The notes: generated by a model from the sequence alone, not told the origin. 45,920 nucleotides of DNA from Actinomycetota bacterium (GCA_030125685.1 JASJYA010000002.1:1-45920), one strand, 5' to 3'; positions 10,901-37,260 are shown, numbered from the stretch's first letter. Numbers and translations: made by a program.

Positions 10901-10912
10901 AGGTAAACGCAG

Positions 10913-14056: not shown

Positions 14057-14061
14057 TCTCA

Positions 14062-16191: not shown

Positions 16192-16215
16192 GGTTGGCGG
16201 TAGGCTCGAAAGGGT

Positions 16216-19599: not shown

Positions 19600-19696
19600 C
19601 GAACCGGCACAGCGTCGAATCCATACCCCGATGCCGCAATCGACTCGGAATCCGCGAGCACCGCGGGTGTCGCCCTTTTTCGAGGAAGCTTGTCTC

Positions 19697-21001
19697 TTAC
19701 CAAGGCCTCCGGGCGATGGCCTCGATCGGCTTCATACCCTGTCCGAATCGCGCGATGGCCTCGCGGTTTTTCGTGAGCTCGCTGTAGGCAATAAAGTGAA
19801 CGTCCAGCAGATTGGCCACTCGACTGAAGGCAGGACGCTTCAACTGTTCCCAGATGTCAGCCTCGCGGGCGTCCGGGGCGACCAGGAATAGCGACAACTC
19901 ATCGTGTTCCAGACCGAGCGCAAGGTCCGACATTCGTAGGATCCCGGAGTAGATCGATGTCGTATGCTCGACTTCGAAGGCTGCCACCACGCGATCGGCG
20001 GTCGAATCGACCCAGAGCACGTCGATCAACCGGATTGCGTCGAATGACGGGTTCTTCTTCAAGCTTTCCGGGAGCCCATCAAGGCAGCCATCAGACAGAC
20101 GCCCGTCGCGGTAGGGTCGGTTGACGTCGTTGCTTGCGATCCACACGTCGAATCCCACCGCGAACCCCAGATCCCGCAGCCAACCCTGAATCTCAGTGTG
20201 GGTGTGGTCCTGGTCCTGCGCTGCCTGAATTGCTCGGTCGGCGCGGTCGGACTCGGCACGAACCTCGGCGAGATCCGTCTCCCATCGCGCAAGGGCTGCG
20301 TCATCCGACTCGCGGGGCGGAGCCGGGTACCTCCCGGAGCCGACATCGAACAGGAGGCCCGCAATCGCTCCAAGGTCGTTGGAAAAAAGGTCTCTGTACT
20401 TCGAGTTCAACTCCAGAATCCCGCGACGCATTGCCAGATACCCGTCCCACCGACCCAACTTCACTTTCGCCCCGGTTACGGCGTTGTAGCCCTTGACGAT
20501 TTTGGTGTTCGAGGGAGGAACCACGGTTGGGTGAAGAAAGTAAAGGATATTGGCGGCGGCGGGCCCGAGACCTTTGATTGCTACGCGGTCCAAGGTCTGG
20601 ATGGCTTCAACGATCTCCGACTCCTCACCGGAACAGCCGACGCACGTCTGGAGGAAACGGCCGAAAGCGAGCTGGTTCTCGGGGCTCTCGTAGATGTCGG
20701 GGATACGTAGCTTCGGCTTCCAGAGGAAGGCGTGGTCGGCGCCTCGGAAGATCTGCCTCTGTTCCGCGATGGACTTTACGACCGTTTCGAGCGAAGAACC
20801 CTTGTACACGTTTCCGAAGGTACCCGCCTCGATCTCTGCTACTACCACCGAAATGCCCTGTCGAATGGAGCGGAAGTTTTTCAGCCGTTCTTCCCAGAGG
20901 AACCAGGTCCGGTAGGTGCCCAACGGGTCCTCCCGCCAACGAGTCAGGAGACGCCGAAACGGATCGATCGTAGAAAGCTGCGGCTCAGGCGCGATATTCA
21001 A
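19697..21001 (-). CDS. Orphan protein with a C-terminal PD-(D/E)xK-like (restriction-endonuclease-fold) domain; N-terminal domain unassigned
   Basis: 434 aa. TTG start at 21001 behind a strong SD (GGAGGAGGAAG). The C-terminal pattern is HTEIQGWLRDLGFAVGFDVWIASND...IDVLWVD...VVAAFEVEHTTSIYSGILRMSDL...LFLVAPD. I recall this arrangement from uncharacterised restriction-endonuclease-like proteins. There is no methyltransferase or partner gene nearby. Confidence 0.5.
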   Translation of the reverse strand: MNIAPEPQLSTIDPFRRLLTRWREDPLGTYRTWFLWEERLKNFRSIRQGISVVVAEIEAGTFGNVYKGSSLETVVKSIAEQRQIFRGADHAFLWKPKLRIPDIYESPENQLAFGRFLQTCVGCSGEESEIVEAIQTLDRVAIKGLGPAAANILYFLHPTVVPPSNTKIVKGYNAVTGAKVKLGRWDGYLAMRRGILELNSKYRDLFSNDLGAIAGLLFDVGSGRYPAPPRESDDAALARWETDLAEVRAESDRADRAIQAAQDQDHTHTEIQGWLRDLGFAVGFDVWIASNDVNRPYRDGRLSDGCLDGLPESLKKNPSFDAIRLIDVLWVDSTADRVVAAFEVEHTTSIYSGILRMSDLALGLEHDELSLFLVAPDAREADIWEQLKRPAFSRVANLLDVHFIAYSELTKNREAIARFGQGMKPIEAIARRPW

Positions 21002-21083: not shown

Positions 21084-21848
21084 CTAGGCGTTCCTCCATT
21101 CGGGGGGGCGTTTCTCGATGAACGCCGTGATGCCCTCGACACCGTCGTGGGTCGCGAGCAGCTCTTCGAGGTAGAGGCGCTCTGTCTCCGCGAGGCGCTG
21201 TTCGACCTCGACTCGCCTCGGTTCTCTGATGGCCCTGGTTGCCAAACGAAGCGACAGCGCCGACCGAGGAACGAAGTGCGTGTTGACGAACGACTCGAGT
21301 GCCGTATCCAGGTCTCCATCGAGCGCGAGCGCGTTGACGATACCCATCCGTCTGGCTTCCTTGGCCGTCAGGCTGCGGCCTGTCAGGAGCACGTCCTCAG
21401 CAACTCTGCCGGTGAGAAGAGCGGTTGCTGCGGGTGGAAAGACGCCGAGCTGAATCTCGGGGCAGGCCAGCGTCGCTCCCTCCTCTGCGATGACGATGCC
21501 GCAGGCGAGCACGAGTTCGAGTCCACCTCCGAGACAGCTGCCTTGAACTCCAGCAACTGTCGGGTAGGGGAAACCGACGAGGGCCCGGATCACTGCGCCA
21601 AGCGCGGCAAGCATCTCTGGTGCCTTGTCAGGGAGATGCTCTTCGACACTGGCGCCAAACGAGAAGTGTCTGCCTGCTCCGCGCAGAACGAGGACCTTGC
21701 CATCGTCTGCCTCGGCAGCAGTCTCGATGGCCTCGAGAAGCTGGCCACACAGGGCGATATCGATGACATTCCCGGGGGCCTTGTCGAGTGTGACCGTGTG
21801 AACCGCGCCATCGGGCGAGGCTTCGTGATGAACCCAGGTGCTGGTCAT
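21084..21848 (-). CDS. dch: Enoyl-CoA hydratase/crotonase; probably cyclohexa-1,5-diene-1-carbonyl-CoA hydratase
   Basis: 254 aa with a crotonase fold (GAGRHFSFGASVEEH...GGGLELVLAC). It overlaps oah by 4 nt. The Dch assignment rests on context plus the HFSFGASV.EH motif as I remember it. Confidence 0.6.
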   Translation of the reverse strand: MTSTWVHHEASPDGAVHTVTLDKAPGNVIDIALCGQLLEAIETAAEADDGKVLVLRGAGRHFSFGASVEEHLPDKAPEMLAALGAVIRALVGFPYPTVAGVQGSCLGGGLELVLACGIVIAEEGATLACPEIQLGVFPPAATALLTGRVAEDVLLTGRSLTAKEARRMGIVNALALDGDLDTALESFVNTHFVPRSALSLRLATRAIREPRRVEVEQRLAETERLYLEELLATHDGVEGITAFIEKRPPEWRNA

Positions 21849-22945
21849 TCGTCTGACTTGTACTGTGGTGACACTGCCTCAATGAGATCGTCGCCCCATG
21901 TTTCACCTGCAGCGAGCCTTCGCCTGAGGTCGATGAAGTCAACCTCTCTTCCGACCTCTCTTGAACCTCTGTGGAACGCCTGGAAGCCTGCCTTGGCCTC
22001 GGTCATCATGTTGAGCGAGAGCCATGCCCTGTTCGATTCCTTGTTCTTGTCCCAATGCTCGAGCTTCTTTTTGCGAACGGACTCTGTTGTCTTCAGCGTG
22101 CAATCGGGCATCGTGTACAGGATCTTGGTGAGCATCGCATCGACACCGGCGTCGAGCATCGAGAAGTCTGTGACGCCGGACCTCAACATGGCCTTTGCGG
22201 CCACGAGCTCGTCGCCCTCCTTCGGCTTGCCGTGCACGATCTTGCCCCACTCATCCAGGTAGCGGTCCGTGATCACGAGGGGATTGGGAATGAATGCTCC
22301 GTCGACTTTCAGCACGGGAAAGATGTCGTTGACAAGGCCGAGGCGCAGTGCCTCATGGGCGCTCCAGGGCTCGCACAGGACACAGCTTGCCATTGCTTCG
22401 CCCCATCCGACGTACAGGTCGAGGAAGTCTGTTGAACCGCCATCCGGAGCGGAGCCGTGTTTCGGTCCTGCCTGGCCGAACCGTGCAAGGTCGGACGCAA
22501 GCGAGAAGTCGCATGCCATCCCGATCTCCTGCCCACCGCCGATTCGCATGCCGTTCACCCTGTTGACCACCGGTTTGTCACACATGAGAATCGCCGAGAC
22601 CATGTCGTTGAACAGGCGCATGTACTGGCGATACTCGCCCGGCCTGCCCGCGTAGTACTCCGAGTACTCCTCGGTGTTTCCTCCCGTGCAGAACGACCGA
22701 TCACCCGTCCCGGTGAAGACAACAGCCACCGCGGCGCGATCGACGGAGGCACGTCGGAAGGCCAGGATGACTTCTTTGACCGCCTTGGTCGTGTAGGAGT
22801 TGAGCTGCTCCGGATTGTCCAGGGTGATCCACACCGCGTGAAGTCCCGCAACAGGTTCGCCGCTGGTGTCGAGGATTCGTCGCTCCTCGTAGAGGATCTC
22901 CGTATATTCGTGGTCGGGGACCAGGTCGTGGTTTACAAACTTCAC
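21845..22945 (-). CDS. oah: 6-oxocyclohex-1-ene-1-carbonyl-CoA hydrolase (ring-cleaving; Oah/BamA)
   Basis: 366 aa, an extended crotonase with NGMRIGGGQEIGMACDF..FGQAGPKHGSAPDGGSTDFL and a long C-terminal domain, as in Oah/BamA. Confidence 0.85.
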   Translation of the reverse strand: MKFVNHDLVPDHEYTEILYEERRILDTSGEPVAGLHAVWITLDNPEQLNSYTTKAVKEVILAFRRASVDRAAVAVVFTGTGDRSFCTGGNTEEYSEYYAGRPGEYRQYMRLFNDMVSAILMCDKPVVNRVNGMRIGGGQEIGMACDFSLASDLARFGQAGPKHGSAPDGGSTDFLDLYVGWGEAMASCVLCEPWSAHEALRLGLVNDIFPVLKVDGAFIPNPLVITDRYLDEWGKIVHGKPKEGDELVAAKAMLRSGVTDFSMLDAGVDAMLTKILYTMPDCTLKTTESVRKKKLEHWDKNKESNRAWLSLNMMTEAKAGFQAFHRGSREVGREVDFIDLRRRLAAGETWGDDLIEAVSPQYKSDE

Positions 22946-22958: not shown

Positions 22959-24023
22959 TCATGGGATGAGGATCGTTCGTTTGGCGCTTCCACGCCGGTG
23001 TGCTTCTTCGAGAGCCTGATCGATGTTGGCCATCGGGGCCTTGCGTATGAATGGCGCAAGATCGACCTTTCCTGACGTGACCAACTGAATGGCCTCCGGG
23101 TATCGCTCGGGAGGGCAGCCCCAACTCCCGAAAGCAGTCGCGTCAAATGCCATCAGGTTCGACAGCCTGATGGTCACCTTCTCCATCGTGAATCCGACCA
23201 CCGCGAGGATTGCGGCCGGACCGAGCATTCCGTACGCAGTCTCCTGACCCATGGGAGTTCCGGAGCACTCGAAGATCTTCCAGCCAGTACGCGATATGTC
23301 GGACGATGCCGCGTACTCCCTGACCGAGTCTCGGATATCGCGAGCTGAGCGGTCTCTTGCGTTGACGGTCGCGGATGCTCCGTGTTCACGAAGCAGAGAG
23401 AGGCGGTCGTCGTCGATGTCGACTGCGAGCACGGTGGCTCCGCTCGCGGCAGCGATTTGCACGGCGTAGGCACCGATGCCGCCTGCTCCGACCACCACCA
23501 CGAAGTCACCCTCGCGCACCTCGGCACGTCTGACAGCTTGGAGCGGTGTCGTGACGGCATCGGCGATGACGCACAGGTCGGCGAGCTCGTACCGGTCGGG
23601 GAGGTTCTGGATGGGGAAGAGGCCGGCGGCCGGTACGGTCACATGCGTGGCAAAACCGCCATCGAGATCGTTCCCCGGCATCTTCTGGTTGACACAAACA
23701 TTGCCCCTGCCGGCGTTGCACAGGTCGCAGTGCCCGCACGCAATGACTGCAGCAACGAGGACATCCCTTCCGATCCAGGATTCAGCGCCCTCTCCTGCTT
23801 CTGTGACCCGGCCACTGATCTCGTGGCCGAGCACGAGGGGGAGCTTCGAGCGGGTTCTGACCGTACCGTCGATGAATCCGAGGTCGGTGTGGCAGAGGCC
23901 GCAGCCGGCCACCTCGACGAGTACTTCGTCGGCCTGGGGTGTTCGCCCTGCGTCGGGGAACCGCTCGAGCGGCTGGCCGGGCGCCACCATGCGCCAGGAG
24001 TATCTGTTGGTACGGGGTTTCAT
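22959..24023 (-). CDS. had: Zn-dependent MDR dehydrogenase; probably 6-hydroxycyclohex-1-ene-1-carbonyl-CoA dehydrogenase
   Basis: 354 aa. CGLCHTDLGF...LGHEISG, WKIFECSGT, VVGFTMEKVTIRLSNLMAF and the C-terminal RTILIP resemble Thauera Had as I recall it. It lies directly upstream of oah. Confidence 0.75.
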   Translation of the reverse strand: MKPRTNRYSWRMVAPGQPLERFPDAGRTPQADEVLVEVAGCGLCHTDLGFIDGTVRTRSKLPLVLGHEISGRVTEAGEGAESWIGRDVLVAAVIACGHCDLCNAGRGNVCVNQKMPGNDLDGGFATHVTVPAAGLFPIQNLPDRYELADLCVIADAVTTPLQAVRRAEVREGDFVVVVGAGGIGAYAVQIAAASGATVLAVDIDDDRLSLLREHGASATVNARDRSARDIRDSVREYAASSDISRTGWKIFECSGTPMGQETAYGMLGPAAILAVVGFTMEKVTIRLSNLMAFDATAFGSWGCPPERYPEAIQLVTSGKVDLAPFIRKAPMANIDQALEEAHRRGSAKRTILIP

Positions 24024-24281
24024 CCCGGCTCCTATCTCGTGTTCCGGTCACGCATTATGAACCACCAGGTAGCTGAACGCCCTTGCGGTGCGCCCTGGGC
24101 TTGTTGGAGGCTCAATTGGCTTTCAATCGGTTGTCTTTCGGCGTATTGTGCACATGGTAGGCATCCTTGAACTCGGCGGGCGAGGTCGGAATTCGGACGT
24201 CGTGCTGTGTCACGCGTACTGCGAAGCACGATATATTCTTGCTCTCTCGTCCAAGGACCGCGAAGCGCAGCGAGCAATCTG

Positions 24282-25250
24282 TCAGCCAAGCTCCTCAAGG
24301 GCACGCCTTACGAAGACCGGGATCATTCGCGTCCGATAGCGGGAGGTGAGGTCTGTGTTGTTGAGGGGTCTGGCGAGCTTTCTCGCGGCCTCAGCAGCCT
24401 CAGCGATCGTTTCCGCGTTGTATGTCCGCCCCACCAGCACTTCCTCGGAAGTTGGAACCCGCAGAGGGGCGGAAGCGACTGCGCCGAGAACGATGCGGGC
24501 CTCGGTGCAGATGTCGGCGTCATCCAGTCGAACAGCAGCGGCGACTCCCAGGATGGGGAAGTCGATACTCCCCCGACGCCGCAGTTTGCGGTAGGTGGCT
24601 CGCAGACCGGCGTGGGGTCCGATAACCACCTCGGTGAGGATCTCCTCAGTTGTCTTGGTGAGGTAGGCCATGCCGTCGTTCCGGTACAGCTGCTCGATGG
24701 GGATGGAGCGCCGCCCGTCGGGACCGATGAGCTGCACCTCGGCGCCCAATGCGACCATCACCGGAGCGAGGTCGGAGCTGCTTACGGCCCAGCAGTCCTT
24801 CTTCGCCGGAGCGACCCAGCACATCTCCCCACCGGCTTTGAGGCACGGCTCGGCGGCTTGGCGCCAAGTGTCGGGAACGTTCAACCAGTCGCAGCGCGTG
24901 TCAACGCAGAGGTTTCCTCCCACCGTGCCCTGGTTGCGGATCTGCGGAGAAGCCACTGCCCCGGCTGCTTCCCGCAACACCTTGGGAAGCCGTGAATCTT
25001 CGACAACCGTCGCCAGTGTCGTGAGCGCGGCAATCCGGATGGTCCCATCGCTCTCGACACGAATCCCGACCAGGTCGGCGACCCGACGAAGGGAGACGAT
25101 GGTTCGAGCTGTCGGGTACTGACGGCGCTTGAGATTCGGAACAAGGTCGCTGCCGCCGGCAGCGAGGAGAGCGCCATCCTCAGCGAGCAGCGCTACTGCT
25201 TCCTCGAGCGTCGACGGCGCCTCATAGCGCAAGGGCGGGAGTCTTAGCAT
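24282..25250 (-). CDS. hcrB: FAD-binding medium subunit of a xanthine-dehydrogenase-family enzyme, HcrB type, with an extra Cys-rich (4Fe-4S) loop
   Basis: 322 aa. FAD_binding_5 pattern (AGGSDLVPNLK...GTVGGNL) followed by the insert CVDTRCDWLNVPDTWRQAAEPCLKAGGEMCWVAPAKKDC. The Cys residues at 120/136/144/153 are spaced X15, X7 and X8. Confidence 0.7.
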   Translation of the reverse strand: MLRLPPLRYEAPSTLEEAVALLAEDGALLAAGGSDLVPNLKRRQYPTARTIVSLRRVADLVGIRVESDGTIRIAALTTLATVVEDSRLPKVLREAAGAVASPQIRNQGTVGGNLCVDTRCDWLNVPDTWRQAAEPCLKAGGEMCWVAPAKKDCWAVSSSDLAPVMVALGAEVQLIGPDGRRSIPIEQLYRNDGMAYLTKTTEEILTEVVIGPHAGLRATYRKLRRRGSIDFPILGVAAAVRLDDADICTEARIVLGAVASAPLRVPTSEEVLVGRTYNAETIAEAAEAARKLARPLNNTDLTSRYRTRMIPVFVRRALEELG

Positions 25251-27625
25251 CAGACCGTTACCGCTTCCGGTGGTGGATCAACCCGCAGCGGTGAGCGAAA
25301 CGTGTAGTCGGGGAGATCCGTCGGCCCGTAACGGCCCGGCCCGCCCCGCTCCAGGTCGTCAAGAGCGGCGAGAACCTTGTCCGGCCGGAGCGGGATCGCG
25401 TCCAACCGGATACCGAGGGCGTCGTGGACGGCGTTTACCACCGCTGGGATAACCGGCAGGAGCGGGCCCTGGCCAACCTCCTTTGCGCCGAAAGGACCCT
25501 CTGCATCGATGGATTCAACGATGATGGACTCGACACGGGGCATCTCAAGAACGGTGGGGATCTTGTAGTCCAGCAGCGACGGGCCGCTGTGCAACGCTCC
25601 CCGGAAGGTCTGTTCCTCCATGAGGACCTCTCCGAGAGCCATATGGACGCTTCCTTCGATCTGGCCGCGGACAAGCAGGGGGTTGATAGCCCGACCGACA
25701 TCGTGGGCGAGCCACACTCTCTCAACCGATACGTGTCCGGTCTCCGGATCGCACTTGACGTCTGCGACGCATGCCGAGTACGAATACGCAGGTGACGGCC
25801 CGACACCTGCGCCCCGATAGTCACCCTTGATGTCCTTCGGGGGTTTGTAGGTTCCCGTCGTCACGAGGAGACCCCATCTTGCCTCGGCGATGCGTGCGGC
25901 TTCTGCCCATGGGATCTCACGATCACCCGCAACAACCACGCCATGGCCGATCTCCACGGCGTCCTGATCGATGTCGAGTTCGTCCGCAATGGCGGTGAGA
26001 ACAAGGTCGGTGAGCTTGAGAGCGGCTTCGAGGGCTGCGTTGCCGGCCATGAAGGTTACGCGGCTGGAGTACGACCCGAGGTCGACTGGCGTGAGGTCCG
26101 TGTCGGCGGTGATGACAACCAGGTCCGAGGGGTCGAGCCCGAGCGCTTCACCCACGACCGTGGCGAGCATGGTCGTCGACCCTTGCCCGCAGTCGGCGGC
26201 CATCGAGTAGACGGTCACACCGCCGCCACGGTCGACCTTGATCATCACTTCGGACTGGGGCATGTCGTTGAAGTAGATGGGCAGCCCAGCTCCAGACATG
26301 TAGGCCCCAATCGCAAAGCCAATGCCGTGGCCCTGGGGGAGATGGCGGCGCTTGTCGAGATACCCCGAATCTGCGACCACGCGATCAATGCACTCTGTCA
26401 GACCGCAGCTCGTGATCCGGAGGTGGTTCACGGTGACGGTGTTCGGTGACACGAGGTTCCGTTTCCGGATGGTCACCGGATCGAGGCCCAGGTCATCCGC
26501 TGCCTTGTCGAGGTGTACCTCGAGGCCAAACCGGGGTTGAGGGGTTCCGTGACCTCGTTTCGGACCACACGCTGGTTTGTTCGTGAACAGCCGAACCCCC
26601 TCGAATCGGTAGGCAGGGATGCGGTAGGTGATGGTCTGTAGCTGTCCGGTGTAGAGCAGGGAAGCTGCCCCGTAGCTGCCGTATGCGCCACCGTCGATGA
26701 ACGTCCTGAACGACATGGCGGTGATGCGTCCGTCGGACGTGAAGCCGGTCTTTACCCACATGAGCACCGGATGGCGGCCGCGGTGGGCGTAGAAGACCTC
26801 CTCCCTGGTGAGTACGAACTTCACTGGACGGCCGGTGATCAGTGCCATCTGCCCAGCGACGAGCTCATGGGAGAACACGTCAGTCTTCGCTCCGAAGCCG
26901 CCGCCCGTGGGAGTGGCCGTCACGCGGATTCGGCTCTCAGGCATCTCGAGAACCTTGGCAAGGATCCTGTGAAGATAGTGGGGGACCTGGGTGGAGGAGA
27001 AGACGTGGAGGCGCCCATCGTCTTCGACGACTCCAAGTGCCCCGTGAGCTTCGAGGGCGGCGTGGTTGTTTCCCTGGTAGAAAAACACATCCTCTCGTAT
27101 GTGGTATGCGATGTCGAAGCCGGCATCGACATCGCCGAACTCGAGTGATATCTCCCTGTCACGGTTGTTTCTTGGCCCGTCGCCGTGAATGGGTTCCTCC
27201 GTGGTCTCGACGGCTTCTGTCATCGTGGTGACAACCGGCAGGGACTCGTACGTGACTTCGATGAGTTCCATGGCCCGTTGAGCGATGTCTGGATGTTCGG
27301 CGGCGACTGCGGCGATGGGATCGCCGATGTGGCGAACCTTATCGACTGCCAGGGCGTGCTCATCCTGGCTCACCGGGAGCAGTCCGAAGGCCACCGGAAG
27401 ATCTTCACCGGTGAGAATCCCATGGACGCCGGGTAGCGCCTTGGCTGCGGAGGTGTCGACGGCGACGATTCGGGCATGTGCCTCGGTGGAGCGGAGGATC
27501 TTGCCATGAAGCATCCCTGAATATGAGAGGTCATCGAGGTACTTCACCCTGCCCGTGGCCTGGGCCAGCGCGTCGACACGGGGAGCCGCACGGCCGACGA
27601 TTCCGAGGTGTGGCTCGCTTCTCAC
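25250..27625 (-). CDS. hcrA: Molybdopterin-binding large subunit of a xanthine-dehydrogenase-family enzyme (4-hydroxybenzoyl-CoA reductase alpha-like)
   Basis: 791 aa with aldehyde oxidase/XDH a/b-hammerhead and MoCo-binding domains (GGGFGAK, ...GQIEGS..MALG, FGAKEVGQGPL). GTGA and ATGA overlaps join it to both neighbours. Confidence 0.7.
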   Translation of the reverse strand: MRSEPHLGIVGRAAPRVDALAQATGRVKYLDDLSYSGMLHGKILRSTEAHARIVAVDTSAAKALPGVHGILTGEDLPVAFGLLPVSQDEHALAVDKVRHIGDPIAAVAAEHPDIAQRAMELIEVTYESLPVVTTMTEAVETTEEPIHGDGPRNNRDREISLEFGDVDAGFDIAYHIREDVFFYQGNNHAALEAHGALGVVEDDGRLHVFSSTQVPHYLHRILAKVLEMPESRIRVTATPTGGGFGAKTDVFSHELVAGQMALITGRPVKFVLTREEVFYAHRGRHPVLMWVKTGFTSDGRITAMSFRTFIDGGAYGSYGAASLLYTGQLQTITYRIPAYRFEGVRLFTNKPACGPKRGHGTPQPRFGLEVHLDKAADDLGLDPVTIRKRNLVSPNTVTVNHLRITSCGLTECIDRVVADSGYLDKRRHLPQGHGIGFAIGAYMSGAGLPIYFNDMPQSEVMIKVDRGGGVTVYSMAADCGQGSTTMLATVVGEALGLDPSDLVVITADTDLTPVDLGSYSSRVTFMAGNAALEAALKLTDLVLTAIADELDIDQDAVEIGHGVVVAGDREIPWAEAARIAEARWGLLVTTGTYKPPKDIKGDYRGAGVGPSPAYSYSACVADVKCDPETGHVSVERVWLAHDVGRAINPLLVRGQIEGSVHMALGEVLMEEQTFRGALHSGPSLLDYKIPTVLEMPRVESIIVESIDAEGPFGAKEVGQGPLLPVIPAVVNAVHDALGIRLDAIPLRPDKVLAALDDLERGGPGRYGPTDLPDYTFRSPLRVDPPPEAVTV

Positions 27626-28086
27626 TGATTCTCCTCAGTCACAGCGGCGACTGCGCTGAGAATGGACAGGTATCCGGTGCATCGGCACATGTTCCCCGCG
27701 ATCGCCTCCGCGATTGTCTCCTCGGACGGGTTGGGGTCACGGTCGAGCAGTGCTTTCGCGGTGAGGATCATTGCGGGTGTGCAGTACCCACACTGTGCCG
27801 CGCCGTGTTCGCCGAAGGAGCGTTGCAGAGGGTGGGGCTCGGTCATCGAGCCGATCCCTTCGATGGTGACAATCTCGCAATCGGTTGCGTTGACGGTCAG
27901 CGTGAGGCAGGAGAGGATCGGCACGCCGTCGATGAGCACCGTGCAGGCGCCACACTCCCCCAGCTCACAGCCGTGTTTGGTTCCGGTAAGCCCGAGGTCT
28001 TCACGCACGGTTTCGAGCAGGGTGCGTTGGGGAGGGACGAAGAGGCGCCTGGTCGCGCCGTTCACTGTTAGTGTCACCGGTTCCAT
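27622..28086 (-). CDS. hcrC: [2Fe-2S]x2 small subunit of a xanthine-dehydrogenase-family enzyme (HcrC-like)
   Basis: 154 aa from the ATG at 28086 (SD GGGAGAG 4 nt upstream), with GCELGECGACTVLIDG and QCGYCTPAMIL...CRCTGY. The longer ORF to 28269 would overlap boxB; an alternative ATG lies at 28113. Confidence 0.8.
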   Translation of the reverse strand: MEPVTLTVNGATRRLFVPPQRTLLETVREDLGLTGTKHGCELGECGACTVLIDGVPILSCLTLTVNATDCEIVTIEGIGSMTEPHPLQRSFGEHGAAQCGYCTPAMILTAKALLDRDPNPSEETIAEAIAGNMCRCTGYLSILSAVAAVTEENQ

Positions 28087-28177
28087 CAACTCTCCCGAAA
28101 TGCGTTGCGTCATCGTAGCGGAGCGGAACCTGGCGCCCGGCGAGTACAGATCGGCGACACAAACCAGAGCGGCAGCC

Positions 28178-29647
28178 TCATACGGTGCCTGGGATTTGCA
28201 CGTACTCGAACTCGACCGGTTTCCCGCCGATACCCTTTTTCGGAGGGGCGATCCACGAGGCGAACTCACCCGGCGTCGTCACCTGCTGCATGAGTTCCTC
28301 GATGAATATCTTGTCGTCCTCGACCGGAAGGTACGAAGCGCGTCGCGAATTCCACGTGGCGGCGTCCAGGAACTCGCCTTCGGGGGTCACGTGGAGGCTG
28401 GCGAATTCCCCGACCTCACGGTGGAACGCGATGTGGGGGAGCCTGAGTTCGAAGTCGATGCCGGCTTCCGAGATGTAGCGATTCCATCGCCTCAGGCCGC
28501 CTGCGCAGTCCTCGACATAGTCGTCCCGAAGCCTGGCGTTGAGCGCGTTGAGGGCAGGCACCTCGACCGTGCGGAATTCGCCTTCGACATGTTTTGTGAC
28601 CGGGTACGTGGATCCGACAAGCTGGTGGTCATCATCTATCGAAGTCTCGTGATAGCGGCCCTTCACCCCGGAGTGGAACGCGCTTGCTGCGTTCGTCGAC
28701 TCCTCCGCACCGAAGAGGTCGAGCGTGAGGGAGAAGTGGAAATTGAGCTTGCGCAGAATGAGTGGCAGGTCGATGACCCCGAGCGACCGAATACGCTCCG
28801 TGTCGTGTGGGTCGTCGATGCCAGCATCTCGCATTGCCTCCACGGTTCGATTCACGATGCGGCCAACGCCTGTGGCTCCCACGAACATATGGTGAGCTTC
28901 TTCGGCAAGCATGAAACGACAGGTGCGCGAGAGTGGGTCGAAGCCGGACTGGGCGAGCGCCTCGAGCTGCATTTTTCCGTCGCGGTCGGTGAAGTAGGTG
29001 AACAGGAAAAACGACAGCCAGTCCGGTGTCTCCTCGTTGAAGGCTCCGAGCATCCGGGGACGGTCGGGGTCGCCGGAACGGCGGCGTAGCAACTCCTCGG
29101 CTTCCTCACGGCCATCCCGTCCGAAGTATCGTTGGAGGAGGTAGACCATCGCCCAGAGATGCCGACCCTCCTCGACGTTGACCTGGAAGAGGTTGCGCAT
29201 GTCGTAGAACGACGGAGCTGTACTTCCGAGGAAGCGCTGCTGCTCGACGGACGCTGGCTCGGTGTCGCCCTGAATGACAATGAGGCGCCGAAACATGGCG
29301 CGGTACGCCCCGGGAACCTCCTGCCAGGCCGGTTCCCCCTTGTGCTCACCGAAAGGAATTGTGCGTCCTTCCTCCGGTGGTGCCAGGAGAATTCCCCAGC
29401 GATATTCAGGCATTTTTACATAGTCGAACTTTGCCCAGCCGCCTTTCTCCACGCTTACCGCGGTGCGCAGCCATATCTCGGCTTCCTGGAATGGCGTCTC
29501 GGCGATGAAGCCGGTCGGTCCCATGTCGGACCACCATTCGAGGTACTTCGGATACCACTTCTCGAGCGCTCGCAGGAGCTTCTGGTCGTCGGCAAGCCCG
29601 ACGTTGTTCGGTATCAGCGTCGAGTAGTCGACAGTGTCAGCAGCCAT
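28178..29647 (-). CDS. boxB: Benzoyl-CoA 2,3-epoxidase (oxygenase) component B, diiron enzyme
   Basis: 489 aa. Long near-identical blocks match Azoarcus BoxB as I recall it (QGDTEPASVEQQR, NLFQVNVEEGRHLWAMVYLL, FGRDGREE, TPDWLSFF, TDRDGK.QL, EEAHH). Confidence 0.95.
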   Translation of the reverse strand: MAADTVDYSTLIPNNVGLADDQKLLRALEKWYPKYLEWWSDMGPTGFIAETPFQEAEIWLRTAVSVEKGGWAKFDYVKMPEYRWGILLAPPEEGRTIPFGEHKGEPAWQEVPGAYRAMFRRLIVIQGDTEPASVEQQRFLGSTAPSFYDMRNLFQVNVEEGRHLWAMVYLLQRYFGRDGREEAEELLRRRSGDPDRPRMLGAFNEETPDWLSFFLFTYFTDRDGKMQLEALAQSGFDPLSRTCRFMLAEEAHHMFVGATGVGRIVNRTVEAMRDAGIDDPHDTERIRSLGVIDLPLILRKLNFHFSLTLDLFGAEESTNAASAFHSGVKGRYHETSIDDDHQLVGSTYPVTKHVEGEFRTVEVPALNALNARLRDDYVEDCAGGLRRWNRYISEAGIDFELRLPHIAFHREVGEFASLHVTPEGEFLDAATWNSRRASYLPVEDDKIFIEELMQQVTTPGEFASWIAPPKKGIGGKPVEFEYVQIPGTV

Positions 29648-29662
29648 GGTTGGAGCTCTCCC

Positions 29663-31312
29663 TCAGGTTCGTTTGCGACCAAACTTGGGCCGGAGCCCTG
29701 TGCCGTAGCGCTGGAGGGCGCCGTCCGGACCCGAAGCATTGGGTCGTGTGAATATCCAGTTCTGCCAGGCGGTGAGCCTGCCAAATATCTTCGTCTCCAA
29801 GGTCTCAGGCCCGGGAAAGCGGAGGTTCGCCTCCATACCGGTGAGAGCATCAGGCGAGAACGACGCCCGCTCCTCGAGCGAGGTCCGCAGCTCGTCGTCC
29901 CAGTCGAGTTCGTCGTAGGCGAAAGTGATGAGCTCCGCGTCGAGCGCCTCCACGGCGCTGAGGTCCTTTCCCAATAGTGCTTCGGCCTGCTCACGAGTCT
30001 CGTCGCGTCCCCAGAAGCGGGTGGCGAGCCTGGTGAGGTGGTTGTCCATCGTGAGCGGACCGACGTTCATTGCGGTGAGGCGGAACTTCGGTGCGGGCAG
30101 ATCGGAACCCTCGAACGTTCCTTCGAGCATGTAACAACGGTCCGCGGAGAGAGCAAGCTCGGCGAGGCCGCCGACGAAGCAGCTTCCCGGTTCGATGAGA
30201 GCGAACGTCGATCGGGATGTCGCGTCGAGCCGCCGCAGTGTCCGTTTCAGGTACAGAACGATCTCCCGCACGGCCCAGTGATCGACATGTTTCAGAAGGA
30301 AGTCGTCGTGTGCAGCGACCAGGTCGGCGTCGCCCTCGGTCTTGAGCAGCCAGGTGCCGATCTCCCTCTCGTTGGTGCGCAGGTGCAGGATGGCGTCGTC
30401 GAGGGCTCGGGTCATCGCCAGAGGCCAGAACGCCGCACCCAGGGCAACGACCGCTTCGGGGTCTGCGGGTGGCGCTTCGCCTGGGCCGGAGACGATCAGG
30501 GTCGCGATACCCGCTCCGTGGTCGAGGTCGATGCGGAGGTGGGGGTATACGATCGCGTCTTCGGCTATTTCTCGCGCCAGCGGCGTCAGCTCGATACCGG
30601 GACCATGAGAGGGGCGGTCGCTTGTTGTCGTCATCTCTGCAAGGCGTTCGTCGACCAACTCGGCGAATCGTGAGGTGGGGATGATCTCGTCGACAAGACG
30701 CCACTCGACGGCACGCTGGCCCTTGATTCCCTCCTCGACGGTGCAGAACACATCAGCACGGTCACGGCGAACGAATCGTTTGTCAACCAGTCGGGTGAGG
30801 CCACCCGTTCCGGGCAACACAGCGAGAAGCGGCACCTCTGGAAGAGCGACGGTGGCACTGCCGTCATCGACAAGGATGATGTAATCGGTGGCGAGGGCGA
30901 GCTCGTATCCACCTCCGGCGGCGTTGCCTCTGAGGGCGGCAACGTAGCGCTGGCCCGAGTTGTTGCTTGCGTCCTCGATACCGTTTCGAGTTTCGTTCGT
31001 GAACTTGCAGAAATTCACCTTCTCAGGATGCGTGGAGCTGCCGAGCATCCGAATGTTCGCCCCCGCGCAGAAGATGCGTTCCTTGAGCGATTCGATCACG
31101 ACGACTTTCACCTCGGGGTGCTCGAAGCGGAGTCGCTGTACTGCGTCGTAGAGTTCGATGTCGACGCCGAGGTCGTAGGAATTCATCTTCAGCTCCCACG
31201 GGCCGAGCCCCCCTGCTTCGTCGACATCCATGCCGAGACGGGCAACATTGCCCTGAACGGTCAGCTTCCAGTGCCTGTAGCGATCTGGATGGGTGCGGAA
31301 GTCCACGTTCAT
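29663..31312 (-). CDS. boxC: Benzoyl-CoA-dihydrodiol (2,3-epoxybenzoyl-CoA) lyase
   Basis: 549 aa from the ATG at 31312 (MNVDFRTHPDRYRHWKL...LKMNSYDLGVDIELYDAVQRLRFEHPEV), a double crotonase. The 5' extension of the ORF to 31591 is implausible. Confidence 0.9.
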   Translation of the reverse strand: MNVDFRTHPDRYRHWKLTVQGNVARLGMDVDEAGGLGPWELKMNSYDLGVDIELYDAVQRLRFEHPEVKVVVIESLKERIFCAGANIRMLGSSTHPEKVNFCKFTNETRNGIEDASNNSGQRYVAALRGNAAGGGYELALATDYIILVDDGSATVALPEVPLLAVLPGTGGLTRLVDKRFVRRDRADVFCTVEEGIKGQRAVEWRLVDEIIPTSRFAELVDERLAEMTTTSDRPSHGPGIELTPLAREIAEDAIVYPHLRIDLDHGAGIATLIVSGPGEAPPADPEAVVALGAAFWPLAMTRALDDAILHLRTNEREIGTWLLKTEGDADLVAAHDDFLLKHVDHWAVREIVLYLKRTLRRLDATSRSTFALIEPGSCFVGGLAELALSADRCYMLEGTFEGSDLPAPKFRLTAMNVGPLTMDNHLTRLATRFWGRDETREQAEALLGKDLSAVEALDAELITFAYDELDWDDELRTSLEERASFSPDALTGMEANLRFPGPETLETKIFGRLTAWQNWIFTRPNASGPDGALQRYGTGLRPKFGRKRT

Positions 31313-31448: not shown

Positions 31449-33017
31449 ATGGACCACAACGTGACAGTGACGGCGGAGGAACTGACCTTCACTCCGGTCT
31501 TCAACGTCGCAGTTCCCTTCGTCGATCGGCACATCACAGAGGGTCGGGCAGGGAACATCGCCATTCGGACGACCTCCGGCGAAGAGGTCACCTACGGGGA
31601 CCTCGTGGACCGAGTGAACCGGGCCGGGAACGCCCTCCGAGGTATGGGCCTCGAAAAAGGGGACCGGATCCTCATGGTGGTCAAGGATGACCCCGTTTTC
31701 TACTACCTGTTCTGGGGCGCGATCAAGGCGGGATTCATCCCCGTTCCCCTCAACACGCTTCTGCGGGCGAAGGACTACGAGTTCATCATCGCGGACTCGC
31801 AGGCGACCGCGCTCATATGGTCCCCAGAGTATGACGAGGCAGTGATTCCGGCGCTGGGCGCCGTGTCGCCGGGTCCGGCGCACCGTATCCCAACGGAGGG
31901 GGAGGGGACGACGATCCGTTCCCTTCTCGAGGAGGCCTCGCCGAACCTGGAGGCTGTCGCCACGGCAGCTCTTGATGACTGCTTCTGGCTGTATTCGTCA
32001 GGGTCGACGGGTGACCCGAAAGGCGCGATCCATCGCCATCGCGACATGGTGGTGGCCTCCCAGCGTTACGGCGTCGAAACCCTGGGCGCCATGGAGGACG
32101 ATGTCTTCTTCTCCGCCGCAAAGCTGTTCTTCGCATACGGCCTCGGCAACGGCATGACGTTCCCTCTGTGGGTCGGTGGAACAGCAATCCTCTTTGACGG
32201 TCGCCCAACTCCTGAAACCACCTTTGACATCATCGGACGACTTGAGCCGACCCTGTATTTTGGCGTGCCAACGCTCTATGCGGCACAACTCGCCGCATTC
32301 GACGAGCTCGAGCCCGACACGTCGTCCGTGCGTTTGTGCGTCTCGGCCGGCGAGGCTCTGCCACCGGACATTCTTCGGCGCTGGAAGGAACACACGGGGC
32401 TCGACATCATTGATGGAATCGGGTCGACGGAGCTCCTTCACATCTTCATCTCAAACCTGCCGGGAGACATTCGGCCGGGCGCAACGGGCAAACCTGTTCA
32501 TGGGTACGACGCCCGGATCGTCGATGACGATGGCAACGATGTAGCCGTCGGGGAGGCGGGACGTCTTCTTGATCGCGGCGAATCGACGGCAAGGGCGTAC
32601 TGGAACAATCCTGAGAAGACGGCAGCGACGATGCTCGCTGATGGCTGGCTGGACACTGGCGACACCTACCTCCGTGACGAAGAGGGGTACTTCTACTACC
32701 AGGGCCGAAGCGACGACATGATGAAGGTCGGAGGGATCTGGACCTCACCGTTCGAGATTGAGGCGAAACTCATGGAGCATCCGCTTGTTCTTGAGGCGGC
32801 GATCGTCGGCCGCGAGGACGACGCTGGTCTTGTGAAGCCGGCCGCGTTCGTTGTCCTCACCGATTCCTCGGCGGAAGGTGAGGACCTGAAGGCGGAGCTG
32901 CGGGCTCTGTGCAGGAAGGATCTTGCTCCCTACAAGTACCCCCGCTGGATCGAGTTCGTCGCTGACCTGTCGAAGACCGCGACCGGCAAGATCCAGCGAT
33001 TCAAGCTCCGCGCCTAG
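31449..33017 (+). CDS. bclA: Benzoate-CoA ligase family (AMP-forming aryl-CoA ligase)
   Basis: 522 aa with the AMP-binding signature YSSGSTGDPKG, ...GEAL..., and the C-terminal KYPRWIEFV..L.KTATGKIQRFKLR. It is divergent from boxC, as in known box clusters. Confidence 0.8.
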   Translation: MDHNVTVTAEELTFTPVFNVAVPFVDRHITEGRAGNIAIRTTSGEEVTYGDLVDRVNRAGNALRGMGLEKGDRILMVVKDDPVFYYLFWGAIKAGFIPVPLNTLLRAKDYEFIIADSQATALIWSPEYDEAVIPALGAVSPGPAHRIPTEGEGTTIRSLLEEASPNLEAVATAALDDCFWLYSSGSTGDPKGAIHRHRDMVVASQRYGVETLGAMEDDVFFSAAKLFFAYGLGNGMTFPLWVGGTAILFDGRPTPETTFDIIGRLEPTLYFGVPTLYAAQLAAFDELEPDTSSVRLCVSAGEALPPDILRRWKEHTGLDIIDGIGSTELLHIFISNLPGDIRPGATGKPVHGYDARIVDDDGNDVAVGEAGRLLDRGESTARAYWNNPEKTAATMLADGWLDTGDTYLRDEEGYFYYQGRSDDMMKVGGIWTSPFEIEAKLMEHPLVLEAAIVGREDDAGLVKPAAFVVLTDSSAEGEDLKAELRALCRKDLAPYKYPRWIEFVADLSKTATGKIQRFKLRA

Positions 33018-34283: not shown

Positions 34284-34433
34284 CGGGAGGAAGCTCGGGC
34301 TAGGAAGTAGTTTTCAGTTCACAGTCAGAAGCTGCTACGCCACAAGCTGCTAATGGTGAGCCCGAGTGCCTCACTTCGCCCAGCGAACACGAAACCGTGA
34401 ACTTTTTCCGGTTTGCATATTTTGGGGCCGGTG

Positions 34434-35744
34434 ATGCAGACTGCTCGCATGGATGTCACGTTCTTCGACCATGAGATTGAGACGCTTCCGAGGGAGCGAC
34501 TGGTCAAGCTTCAGGAGGCGAAGCTCGCCGCGGTGGTGAGAGAAACGTACGGCAGCAATCGTTTCGTTTCCGACAAGCTTGATGCTGCGGGCGCTGCACC
34601 ACAGGACGTGCGCACGCTTGAGGATCTCGTCGGCTTGCCGTTCACCACGAAGGCCGAACTCCTCGCAGCGCAAGATGAGGGACCGATGAGCACCAACTGC
34701 ACCTTCCCCGAGGCGGCTTACACACGGATTCACCAGACATCGGGAACCACGGGTTCACCCCTGCGGGTCTTCGACACACCACAGAGCTGGGACTGGTGGG
34801 GTCGATGCTGGGGGTTCGTGCTTGCGGGCGCCGGGCTTACTGCTGAGGACCGGTTCTTCGTACCCTTCTCTTTCGGTCCATTCATCGGGTTCTGGGCAGC
34901 CGTCGGGGGCGCCGAGAAGATCGGCGCCTTGATGGTCCCTGGAGGGGGTCGCACCTCGGCACAGCGCCTCCAGCTCATGGCGGACCACGGGGTCACTGCA
35001 ATGTGCTGCACCCCAACCTACGCACTGCGACTGGTTGAAGTCGCGGATGAAGAGGGTTTCGACCTGTCGGCGATCCCGATGCGGATCACGGTGCATGCCG
35101 GGGAGCCCGGCGCCAACGTTCCTGCCACAAAGGCCCGGATCGAGGACGCATGGGGGGCGAAGTGCTATGACCACGCCGGGGCTTCGGAGGTGGGGGCCCA
35201 CAGTTTCGAGTGTCAGGCCCAACCCGGGGGGACCCATGCGATCGACAGCGAGTTCATCGTCGAAGTGGTCGATCCCGCCAGCGGACGGGCGGTCTCGCCC
35301 GGCGATGAAGGTGAACTCGTCATCACAAACTTGGGTCGAGTCGCGTTCCCTGTGATCCGATATCGTACCGGTGATATCGTACGGATCGACAACGCTCCGT
35401 GCGCGTGTGGGCGGACCTTCACGCGCTTCGCGGGAGGAGTCATTGGGAGAGCCGACGACATGGTTGTCGTCCGCGGTGTGAATATCTACCCGGCTGCGGT
35501 GGAGAACCTACTGCTGCTTCACGACACGATCGACGAGTTCCGGGTCACGATCACGCGGCGTCACTCGACGGCGGTGATCCTCATCGAGATCGAGTGCCGC
35601 GACGGCGCCAGCGGTGAGGACACTGTGCGTGCCGTGAGAGCGGCATTCGAATCCTCGCTGGGGTTGCGACCGGAGATCGAAATGGCGCCGCGAGGCACTC
35701 TCCCGCGCTTCGAGTTGAAGGCACAACGCTTCTTCATCAAGTGA
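34434..35744 (+). CDS. paaK: Phenylacetate-CoA ligase family protein (PaaK / F390-synthetase-like)
   Basis: Present are LPFTTKAELL, IHQTSGTTGSPLRVFDT, YDHAGASEVG, RYRTGDIV and GRADDMVVVRGVNIYP. The start is ambiguous (TTG 34413, GTG 34431, ATG 34434, ATG 34449). Confidence 0.75.
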   Translation: MQTARMDVTFFDHEIETLPRERLVKLQEAKLAAVVRETYGSNRFVSDKLDAAGAAPQDVRTLEDLVGLPFTTKAELLAAQDEGPMSTNCTFPEAAYTRIHQTSGTTGSPLRVFDTPQSWDWWGRCWGFVLAGAGLTAEDRFFVPFSFGPFIGFWAAVGGAEKIGALMVPGGGRTSAQRLQLMADHGVTAMCCTPTYALRLVEVADEEGFDLSAIPMRITVHAGEPGANVPATKARIEDAWGAKCYDHAGASEVGAHSFECQAQPGGTHAIDSEFIVEVVDPASGRAVSPGDEGELVITNLGRVAFPVIRYRTGDIVRIDNAPCACGRTFTRFAGGVIGRADDMVVVRGVNIYPAAVENLLLLHDTIDEFRVTITRRHSTAVILIEIECRDGASGEDTVRAVRAAFESSLGLRPEIEMAPRGTLPRFELKAQRFFIK

Positions 35745-35960: not shown

Positions 35961-37253
35961 ATGAAGCGTTACCGGCCAATCATCGTGAGCCTTACCTTGG
36001 CACTGGCGCTCGTGCTCAGTGCATGCGGCGGGACAGACGAACCCGCCGACACCACAACCGGCGCGGCGGAAACGACCACCACAGCCCCTGCCGCAACCCC
36101 GACTACCGCCGCAACCCCGACTACCGCCGCAACCCCGGTGAGTACCGAGCCGATCAAGATCGGTCTCCTCACTTCGCTGACCGCGACCTTCGCGCCTTGG
36201 GGCATATCGGTCCGCGACGGAATGCGGCTCGCCGTGAAAGAGATCAACGCGGCCGGGGGCGTGGATGGACGAATGCTCGAGCTGATCGAACGCGACGACC
36301 AGTCGAATCCTGAGGAAGGGGTGAAAGGTCTCGAACGGCTCATCGAAGATGGCGTTGTTGCCGCCGGCGGTGTGATCTCGAGCGATGTCGGTCTAGCGAC
36401 GGCGCGAGTCGCCGAAGAGCTAAAGGTTCCGCTCTTCCTTGTCAAGGCCGGCTCCGACGCTATCCTCACGACCGAGAGCCGCTATACGTTCCGTACCTGC
36501 CTACCTGCTGCACCCATGGTCGCCGGTCCCGTGGCTCAGTATGTCGTGAGCACCGGGGTCACGAAGGTCGGCGCCATCATCGCCGACTACGCGTGGGGAC
36601 AAGCCGTGAAGTCGGCACTTGAGAACGAATTCGCCGGTCTTGAGGGAGTCGAACTCCAGATTGAGGTGGCGCCGGTGTCCGAGAAGGACTTCGCGGCCTA
36701 TCTCAGGCGACTCGACGATTTCGGGGCCGAGATCATCGTTGCCACGGGTCACCCGCCGGGAGGCGTGTCGATCACAAAGCAAACCGGCGATTTCGGGATG
36801 GATCTAGCGGTCACCGGTTCATGGAACCCTTTGGGGTTGATTGTGGGTGCGGTCGGCGACCAAGCGTTTGATCGATACGCGGACTTCGCTTGCGTCGACT
36901 ATGACAGCGCCGAATACCAGGATCTCGCTCGCAGATACCTCGCGTTCTCCGAGAACACATTCATGGAGGACGACGCTGTTGCAGGATTCGGCATGGTGCA
37001 TGCGATCGCCGAGGCTGTCGGCGAGGTCGGCGACGACCCCGTGGCCGTGGCCGCGTACCTGCACGCCAACACCTTCGACATTCCGGGGTACTCATTCTCG
37101 TTGAGTTGGACCGAATGGGGCGAGATCGCAGCCGCCCAGCCAACGTTCGTGGTGATCCGTGAACAGGAGCCGCCCGAAGGTGTCAGTCCAGGGGCCAACT
37201 GGTATCCAGAACTCCTTCTGTTGTCGGAGCCTCTTGAGCCGTACGTCCCATAG
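35961..37253 (+). CDS. ABC transporter substrate-binding lipoprotein, LivK/Peripla_BP_6 family (probably an aromatic-acid binder)
   Basis: 430 aa. The signal peptide carries a lipobox (LVLSAC), followed by a Thr/Ala/Pro linker and a type I periplasmic-binding fold (IKIGLLTSLTATFAPWG...). Confidence 0.85.
   Translation: MKRYRPIIVSLTLALALVLSACGGTDEPADTTTGAAETTTTAPAATPTTAATPTTAATPVSTEPIKIGLLTSLTATFAPWGISVRDGMRLAVKEINAAGGVDGRMLELIERDDQSNPEEGVKGLERLIEDGVVAAGGVISSDVGLATARVAEELKVPLFLVKAGSDAILTTESRYTFRTCLPAAPMVAGPVAQYVVSTGVTKVGAIIADYAWGQAVKSALENEFAGLEGVELQIEVAPVSEKDFAAYLRRLDDFGAEIIVATGHPPGGVSITKQTGDFGMDLAVTGSWNPLGLIVGAVGDQAFDRYADFACVDYDSAEYQDLARRYLAFSENTFMEDDAVAGFGMVHAIAEAVGEVGDDPVAVAAYLHANTFDIPGYSFSLSWTEWGEIAAAQPTFVVIREQEPPEGVSPGANWYPELLLLSEPLEPYVP
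36089..36140 (+). repeat. 18-bp tandem repeat (about 2.9 copies of cgccgcaaccccgactac) encoding the AATPTT linker of the lipoprotein
   Basis: Read directly. The repeat is in frame and encodes a low-complexity linker after the lipobox. Confidence 0.8.
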
Positions 37254-37260
37254 TCAGTGG

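Follow-up and report, generated by a model that had tools for sequence, protein, structure and literature searches.

A boxC-boxB gene pair running into an HcrCAB-like trio, without boxA, in DNA of an Actinomycetota bacterium

The five-gene unit

We analysed a stretch of 45,920 nucleotides from an Actinomycetota bacterium (GCA_030125685.1, JASJYA010000002.1:1-45920; the whole of it is called the window below), in which boxC and boxB, encoding two enzymes of the aerobic benzoyl-CoA pathway, are followed by three genes for an hcrCAB-like Mo/FeS/FAD enzyme (the trio; 24282-28086, minus strand). Open reading frame (ORF) listing and family scans, the latter judged by NCBIfam equivalog cut-offs (TIGR models) and Pfam domains, confirmed that the genes for BoxC, BoxB and the small, large and medium subunits lie in this order and direction on the minus strand (Table 1), as a preliminary description of this DNA had reported. 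The 15-nt gap between boxC and boxB and the 91-nt gap between boxB and the small-subunit gene are also as first given. Of the two overlaps claimed within the trio, the GTGA between the small- and large-subunit genes stands; the supposed ATGA between the large- and medium-subunit genes is in fact a TGATG junction with a 1-nt overlap.

By their sequences, BoxB and BoxC are full-length equivalogs of known Box enzymes. The boxC product matches TIGR03222 over its full length (856 bits, cut-off 712), and residues 6-485 of the boxB product cover positions 1-471 of TIGR03225 (835 bits, cut-off 499). BoxB and the Azoarcus evansii enzyme (PDB 3PER_A) can be aligned over their whole length (641 bits), and both E-x-x-H motifs of BoxB fall on those of 3PER_A, the segments NVEEGRHLW and EEAHH being identical or conserved. 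We take the diiron ligands to be those assigned in the published 3PER structure. A 4.8-kb fragment of another assembly, GCA_030123745.1, encodes a BoxB identical to that of the window.

The domains of the trio (Fer2 with Fer2_2, Mo-pterin and FAD) are those of the three xanthine-oxidase-family subunits, and the translated small subunit carries the cysteine motifs C-x4-C-x2-C-x11-C and C-x2-C-x31-C-x-C. The large subunit is closest to HcrA of the Thauera 4-hydroxybenzoyl-CoA reductase (4-HBCR; 1RM6_A, 602 bits), the next PDB match reaching 289 bits; identity to the Thauera enzyme is 41.6% for the alpha and 35.4% for the beta subunit. The medium subunit aligns unbroken with 1RM6_B, including the insertion of about 40 residues that holds an additional [4Fe-4S] cluster, with its Cys120, Cys136, Cys144 and Cys153 falling on the four cysteines of that cluster. 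For most other solved medium subunits of the family, the alignment breaks into two stretches that skip residues about 116-157. All four loop cysteines are present in 88 of 89 related medium subunits, and this putative cluster loop is diagnostic of HcrB. The preliminary description had placed the enzyme with 4-HBCR, and phylogeny agrees: in a neighbour-joining tree without bootstrap, the clade of the large subunit is the sister of Thauera HcrA plus two alphaproteobacterial sequences. A search of a plasmid collection with the large subunit returned only generic xanthine-dehydrogenase-family genes (36% identical).

The active site, however, departs from that of the Thauera enzyme. Residue Q719 of the large subunit (codon 25469-25471, minus strand; motif GAKEVGQG) aligns with Glu726 of Thauera HcrA, a position also held by Glu in nicotinate dehydrogenase, CoxL, 6-hydroxypseudooxynicotine dehydrogenase and quinoline oxidoreductase. 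Besides the solved family members, Glu is kept only in Thauera HcrA and in the trios of two alphaproteobacterial loci (L036 and L055; L-numbers denote related loci compared with the window). On the large-subunit tree, the box-linked members of the Gln-type clade are spread over three positions. The trio is thus best described as a predicted Gln-type, HcrCAB-like enzyme and not as an established 4-HBCR.

The preliminary description treated the five genes as one apparent transcription unit, which a terminator/promoter pair in the 91-nt gap would have spoken against. A consensus scan of the minus strand of the gap gave no terminator-like or sigma-70-like match, and its RNA fold is not unusual (z = +0.68). 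The gap does hold a block, GCGCTACGATGRC (28104-28122, minus strand; TACGAT at 28117..28112), about 25-30 nt before the hcrC start, which is kept across eight Acidimicrobiia relatives with gaps of 70-92 nt; in L092, where only 9 nt separate boxB from hcrC, it is absent. The block is non-coding: the upstream ATG at 28113 has not been conserved as a start codon, L087 and L090 either lacking it or having it out of frame. TACGAT fits the actinobacterial TANNNT -10 pattern; the block could be a -10 element, or else an operator. Of the pair, therefore, the terminator was not found and a conserved -10-like block was. These data do not demonstrate independent transcription of hcrCAB, and read-through from boxB together with an internal hcrCAB promoter is plausible. 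At the other end of the unit, CATAAT stands about 35 nt ahead of the had start in the 258-nt gap (24024-24281). A separate promoter for had-oah-dch is therefore possible, which would fit L091, whose five-gene unit lacks had-oah-dch.

Recurrence of the pairing and absence of BoxA

The nearest public relatives of the window are metagenome-assembled genomes (MAGs) of Acidimicrobiia, many from marine and hydrothermal sediments. In ten such loci (L002, L087-L092, L095, L099 and L100), whose BoxB is 85-98% identical, bclA diverges from a boxC-boxB-hcrCAB unit; in one of them (L091) there are no genes of the anaerobic branch (benzoyl-CoA reductase (BCR), had or oah) within 10 kb. A MAG labelled Proteobacteria (L070) has the order boxC-boxB-(pnbB-like)-hcrCAB, the gene between boxB and hcrC (L070 6533-7006) being of the PnbB family (4-hydroxylaminobenzoate lyase). 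A 7Fe ferredoxin gene (Fer4+DUF3470) lies at 247-744 of this locus, and another accompanies the trio in L036.

A metagenome scan seeded with the large subunit revealed a further group of loci, less than 60% identical to the window enzyme and mostly of Rokubacteria type; the label comes from the few named homologues of one member, L123, which are Rokubacteria/Methylomirabilota, and gene calls in these high-GC loci were made by homology mapping and manual ORF choice. Here the genes follow one another on the same strand as hcrCAB, an XRE-cupin regulator, boxC, boxB, a RidA-family gene and bclA, often with a PaaK-type ligase. The order from hcrCAB through the regulator, boxCB and the RidA-family gene to bclA was found in 21 of the 31 loci whose sequence continues for 2.5 kb or more past the medium subunit, and no BCR, had or oah genes were found within 10 kb of the box-linked loci of this type. 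In L123 the operon occupies 9510-19100, and about 20 other loci are similar; upstream of it L123 has a fused IOR-type 2-oxoacid:ferredoxin oxidoreductase gene (1411-5112), and the locus also contains divergent genes for a CoA-transferase and an enolase-superfamily protein. Finally, in the Xanthobacteraceae/alphaproteobacterial MAG loci L036 and L055, boxCB is convergent with bclA and the trio is of the Glu type.

On the BoxB tree the trio-linked loci fall in four separate lineages, with two gene orders. The finding is thus real and more general than the preliminary description could know. The pairing recurs across several phyla, so it is more than a curiosity of one genome and probably marks an undescribed low-oxygen route for phenolic acids; in the literature that we found, linkage of boxCB to genes of this kind is not described.

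Trios 67-84% identical to that of the window are also found where box genes are lacking, in settings of three kinds. In L082 (84%) and L086 (67%) the trio lies beside phenylphosphate-synthase-like (Pps) genes and genes for a UbiD-type carboxylase, UbiX and a PaaK-type ligase. In L084, L101, L107 and L111-L114 it stands directly behind ChsH2-thiolase-PrpF genes, near 2-oxoacid:ferredoxin oxidoreductases; such an oxidoreductase gene is close to the trio in both L084 and L123. In L103 and L107 it is next to had-oah-dch and the BCR-like operon. The first of these contexts is the main support for a 4-HBCR function, because the phenol-carboxylation route needs 4-hydroxybenzoyl-CoA reductase to reach benzoyl-CoA.

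The claim that the window has no boxA held when we searched it by tblastn with a verified BoxA, encoded directly after boxB in Alloalcanivorax (L022:11486-12661; TIGR03224, 563 bits). Only noise was returned, the best match having E = 0.054 over 15 residues, and no frame of the window contains a CxxCxxCxxxC-type ferredoxin motif. (For the biochemistry of BoxA we draw on published work, including PMC5489048.) Among the 80 genome loci with the most similar BoxB, boxA follows boxB immediately in 40, and the remaining 40 have no boxA within 10 kb. The loci with boxA are confined to proteobacterial clades of the BoxB tree; BoxA was not found in any locus examined from Actinomycetota, Acidobacteriota, Gemmatimonadales or Rokubacteria, nor in any locus linked to the trio. 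At least 30 boxCB loci that lack BoxA also lack the trio within 10 kb, the Actinomycetota sister clade among them.

Clustering of the ORFs downstream of boxB in the loci without BoxA gave no common substitute reductase, and a ferredoxin motif scan of all loci found none conserved in the trio-linked ones, apart from the 7Fe ferredoxins of L036 and L070. As an alternative conserved reductase of BoxB we therefore have no candidate, having seen only a flavodoxin-like ORF and an FAD-oxidoreductase. The former lies directly after boxB in two alphaproteobacterial loci without boxA (L032 2373-2834 and L077 11505-11963) and might serve BoxB as another electron carrier. The latter is a 745-residue FAD_oxidored protein encoded after boxB at L036 6032-8269. 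In L055, of Xanthobacteraceae type and without boxA like L036, an aldehyde dehydrogenase gene that could be boxD follows boxB (11582-13162). In the window, no Aldedh-domain protein of the NADP-dependent BoxD type was present among the ORFs scanned, though its gene may lie outside this stretch. BoxD is seldom adjacent even in canonical loci: a crude aldehyde dehydrogenase motif scan gave a match in only four loci, so the absence of BoxD is uninformative.

Surrounding genes

Two gene groups that the preliminary description omitted, had-oah-dch and a BCR-like operon, bear on the setting of the unit. The best NCBIfam matches of the four products of the operon are BcrC, BcrB, BcrA and BcrD, all below the cut-offs (243, 199, 218 and 151 bits against 421, 487, 578 and 313, respectively). 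In L090, L103 and L107 this operon abuts dch-oah-had. About 5 kb (16216-21001) separate the two in the window, holding a P-type ATPase gene (16216-18690), a parallel beta-helix fragment (19060-19599) and an ORF of 434 residues without family match (19697-21001); this segment looks like an insertion, because the operon adjoins dch directly in L090. Directly after the operon, an ORF at 15787-16203 (138 residues) is probably no gene, its Arg-rich, low-complexity translation having no family match; short unannotated ORFs stand at the corresponding place in L086 and L090. Taken together, the window is predicted to be a benzoyl-CoA island with an O2-dependent and an O2-independent branch.

On the other side of the unit, the gene of the benzoate-CoA ligase family is linked to boxC in many related loci and is its divergent neighbour in the window clade. 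Homologues of the PaaK-type ligase flank the trio in the phenol-type and Rokubacteria loci, which makes 4-hydroxybenzoate a candidate substrate for it. The cluster diverging from boxC also includes a Zn-dependent alcohol dehydrogenase gene. A homologue of the Liv binding protein, 83% identical, adjoins the trio in L082. The ChsH2-thiolase-PrpF operon, 12 kb away in the window, is directly upstream of hcrCAB in L084, L086, L107 and L111-L114, and a divergent HMGL-like gene (43620-44993 in the window) lies immediately upstream of the hcrCAB region in L084, L086, L107 and L113. The 12-kb separation indicates that a rearrangement, as judged from gene order, brought boxCB next to the trio. Molybdenum cofactor biosynthesis genes elsewhere in the window are consistent with a Mo enzyme encoded nearby.

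Table 1. Features of the 45,920-nt window, with the evidence for each (scores in bits)
Feature	Position	Strand	Evidence or remark
boxC, 2,3-epoxybenzoyl-CoA dihydrolase, 549 aa	29663-31312	-	TIGR03222; ECH_1/ECH_2 domains; start ATG at 31312
boxB, diiron benzoyl-CoA 2,3-epoxidase, 489 aa	28178-29647	-	TIGR03225; 3PER_A alignment
boxB-hcrC intergenic gap, 91 nt	28087-28177	-	ribosome-binding site GGGAGAG before ATG at 28086
hcrC-like small subunit, 2x[2Fe-2S], 154 aa	27622-28086	-	Fer2 + Fer2_2
hcrA-like molybdopterin large subunit, Gln-type, 791 aa	25250-27625	-	Ald_Xan_dh_C + MoCoBD_1 + MoCoBD_2
hcrB-like FAD medium subunit with [4Fe-4S] Cys loop, 322 aa	24282-25250	-	FAD_binding_5 + CO_deh_flav_C
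had, 6-hydroxycyclohex-1-ene-1-carbonyl-CoA dehydrogenase	22959-24023	-	TIGR03201, 450 (cut-off 339); 258 nt from hcrB
oah, 6-oxocyclohex-1-ene-1-carbonyl-CoA hydrolase	21845-22945	-	TIGR03200, 551 (cut-off 464)
dch-like dienoyl-CoA hydratase	21084-21848	-	best family TIGR03189, 213 (below cut-off 292)
TetR regulator and four-gene class-I BCR-like operon	10913-15707 (operon 11545-15707)	+	HGD-D x2, BcrAD_BadFG x2
Benzoate-CoA ligase family gene, divergent from boxC	31449-33017	+	TIGR02262, 603 (cut-off 375)
PaaK-type aryl-CoA ligase, candidate 4-hydroxybenzoate-CoA ligase	34413-35744	+	PaaK models, 240-280 (below cut-off)
Liv-type ABC uptake system (binding protein, 2 ATPases, 2 permeases)	35961-40583	+	
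ChsH2(DUF35)-thiolase-PrpF operon	40694-43564	-	
Mo cofactor biosynthesis genes moeA, moaC, MoCF_biosynth	5344-7601	+	Pfam

Proposed function and relation to known systems

The preliminary description considered it paradoxical that an O2-requiring and an O2-sensitive aryl-CoA enzyme should share a transcription unit, and offered two explanations: a funnel leading from 4-hydroxybenzoyl-CoA through benzoyl-CoA to the epoxide, or replacement of BoxA by the trio as the electron input of BoxB. The co-occurrence itself is real, but the paradox is weaker than it seemed, as the window also encodes a BCR-like reductase with Had, Oah and Dch, and mixed contexts are known: in Proteobacteria, box and bcr genes have been found together, and box genes or their proteins are expressed under conditions that are anoxic or nitrate-reducing (PMC10803450, PMC9290046, PMC4453571). 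The funnel is the best supported reading, and we hold with moderate confidence that the trio acts as a 4-hydroxybenzoyl-CoA-type dehydroxylase feeding benzoyl-CoA to BoxB and BoxC or to the reductase. This would account for the homology to HcrA and HcrB with its diagnostic loop, for the Pps/UbiD and ligase contexts, for the recurrent linkage of Glu- and Gln-type enzymes alike to boxCB, and for the presence of both benzoyl-CoA branches.

According to this proposal, the five genes would form, and would be transcribed as, one catabolic unit for aromatic acids converging on benzoyl-CoA. The trio, as a member of the Gln-type sister clade of 4-HBCR, would take up low-potential electrons at the surface [4Fe-4S] cluster and pass them through FAD and the two [2Fe-2S] clusters to the Mo centre, where the para-hydroxyl of 4-hydroxybenzoyl-CoA, supplied by one of the two neighbouring ligases, would be removed. 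With O2 available, BoxB would epoxidize the benzoyl-CoA from this reaction and from benzoate, and BoxC would open the epoxide; without O2, this benzoyl-CoA would go to the BCR-like enzyme for reduction and on to Dch, Had and Oah. With no BoxA beside it, BoxB would most likely draw its two electrons from a donor encoded elsewhere, plausibly the ferredoxin pool of the trio.

Several observations weigh against this proposal. All three subunits score below the cut-offs of the 4-HBCR equivalogs (small, TIGR03193, 165 bits against 258; large, for which TIGR03194 is the best family, 826 against 995; medium, TIGR03195, 263 against 405). The homologous Rokubacteria trio is likewise under them (861 for TIGR03194, 314 for TIGR03195 and 195 for TIGR03193). 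The Mo-site Glu has an established catalytic role in the xanthine-oxidase family. Its place is taken by Gln in 120 of 120 closest homologues and in 92 examined loci, so the chemistry or the substrate may differ from that of 4-HBCR. The Thauera 4-HBCR is described as O2-sensitive and ferredoxin-dependent, and the proposal does not explain how such an enzyme would work beside an O2-dependent one; the window itself encodes neither a ferredoxin nor a reductase for BoxB. In addition, BoxA occurs in none of the 36 trio-linked loci with near-full-length BoxB on the BoxB tree, compared with 40 of the 80 BoxB-seeded loci, and a BoxA-free state fits a role of the trio as a partner of BoxB as well as it fits the funnel.

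That last count favours the second explanation of the preliminary description, in which the medium subunit with its FAD and [4Fe-4S], with or without the 2x[2Fe-2S] subunit, feeds the diiron site in place of BoxA, perhaps besides a dehydroxylase activity. The 36 loci include L036 and L055, whose sister L043 has boxA; the trio occupies the position of boxA in the window clade and in L070, as close as 9 nt behind boxB in L092; FAD and [4Fe-4S] are combined in BoxA as they are in the medium subunit; and the L091 and Rokubacteria units lack anaerobic genes. Nevertheless, trios 80-84% identical occur at loci without boxB, in the phenol module of L082 or behind the ChsH2-thiolase-PrpF genes of L084, which disfavours this role, and many boxCB loci manage with neither BoxA nor the trio within 10 kb. 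Moreover, the 791-residue Mo subunit, needless for a pure electron donor, is fully conserved, as much as the FeS and FAD subunits. The mutual exclusion is also confounded by phylogeny, the BoxA-linked loci being nearly all proteobacterial, and BoxA may be encoded elsewhere in the genomes concerned. We consider it improbable that the trio is the reductase of BoxB. The broader suggestion, that in the lineages without BoxA (marine Acidimicrobiia, soil Rokubacteria and the one MAG labelled Proteobacteria) the trio is an obligatory partner of BoxB and BoxC, either as electron donor to the diiron centre through its surface [4Fe-4S]/FAD module or through a Mo-site reaction coupled to epoxidation, seems to us no less doubtful. 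Were it true, boxCB with hcrCAB would constitute an aerobic benzoyl-CoA pathway of a self-contained, so far undescribed form.

The adjacency might instead have no direct metabolic meaning, the genes being gathered in a benzoyl-CoA island for co-inheritance and common regulation and the trio serving the anaerobic branch only. In the window, as in L090, had-oah-dch do follow the trio, which faces the BCR-like operon; box, phenol and PrpF contexts vary within a tight trio clade; the conserved -10-like block could give hcrCAB its own promoter; and mixed box/bcr contexts have precedents. What makes this reading unlikely, in our judgement, is that Glu- as well as Gln-type enzymes are linked to boxCB, across four BoxB lineages and two gene orders, and that the linkage persists where no anaerobic genes are near. 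Very improbable, finally, is an action of the trio on Box intermediates, either oxidizing the aldehyde produced by BoxC, thereby replacing BoxD and recycling electrons to BoxB, or deoxygenating hydroxybenzoyl-CoA by-products of the epoxide. Neither BoxD nor BoxA is encoded in the window, aldehyde oxidoreductases belong to the xanthine-oxidase family, and the L091 unit is self-contained; yet Gln in place of Glu speaks against hydroxylase or aldehyde-oxidase chemistry, the same enzyme occurs without box genes, and BoxD is rarely a neighbour in any case. On the first two of these grounds we rejected the trio as an aldehyde oxidoreductase standing in for BoxD (and BoxA); the version in which by-products are repaired is purely speculative.

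The dehydroxylase reading, if true, has wider consequences. Lignin and pollutants yield 4-hydroxybenzoate and phenol as major breakdown products, for which the textbook routes are hydroxylation with O2 or dehydroxylation under strict anoxia. A dehydroxylating Mo enzyme coupled to an O2-sparing epoxidase would be a third, low-oxygen strategy, present in two very abundant uncultured groups, the Rokubacteria of soils and the Acidimicrobiia of sediments. The finding also raises the questions of what reduces BoxB where BoxA is missing and how a xanthine-oxidase-family enzyme catalyses with Gln for Glu.

Of the known systems, the BoxABC pathway of Aromatoleum (Azoarcus) evansii and other Proteobacteria shares with the window its full-length equivalogs of BoxB and BoxC, the order boxC-boxB and, in loci such as L022, the linked benzoate-CoA ligase. 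In contrast to that pathway, the window has neither boxA nor boxD, and the slot after boxB is filled by the Mo enzyme. HcrCAB of Thauera aromatica (1RM6/1SB3), by far the closest solved structure, resembles the trio in its small-large-medium subunit order, its 2x[2Fe-2S], FAD and Mo-pterin cofactors and the four-Cys insertion of about 40 residues in the medium subunit; the phenol/4-hydroxybenzoate gene contexts of relatives of the window trio are a further likeness. The trio differs in forming a separate sister clade, in its linkage to boxCB in several lineages, in falling below the cut-offs of all three NCBIfam equivalogs, and in having Gln throughout its clade where Thauera has Glu726.

Also related are the hybrid bcl/box/bcr systems of Thauera, Azoarcus, Georgfuchsia and Sedimenticola, in which one benzoyl-CoA pool serves an O2-dependent and an O2-independent branch, as it would in the window. 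In these organisms box genes or proteins are expressed during nitrate or perchlorate reduction, and an oxygen-scavenging role has been proposed for the box pathway (PMC10803450, PMC9290046, PMC4453571). Unlike the window, these organisms have boxA or a complete box cluster elsewhere; the papers found make no mention of a linked 4-HBCR-type enzyme, and the BCR of the window is of a divergent class-I type that stays below the thresholds. Genome bins of SAR324 contain a conserved cluster of ligase, BoxB and BoxC, the combination seen in the window; in the passages of PMC4782131 concerned with it, BoxD is given as missing, BoxA is unmentioned and the gene arrangement does not appear. The same passages record 4-HBCR in two of the bins and draw no link between it and the box genes. 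The present finding is therefore not categorically new, because its components all belong to known families and hybrid benzoyl-CoA islands are known; what is new here is the conserved unit of BoxB and BoxC with the HcrCAB-like enzyme, its consistent lack of BoxA and the Gln-type active site.

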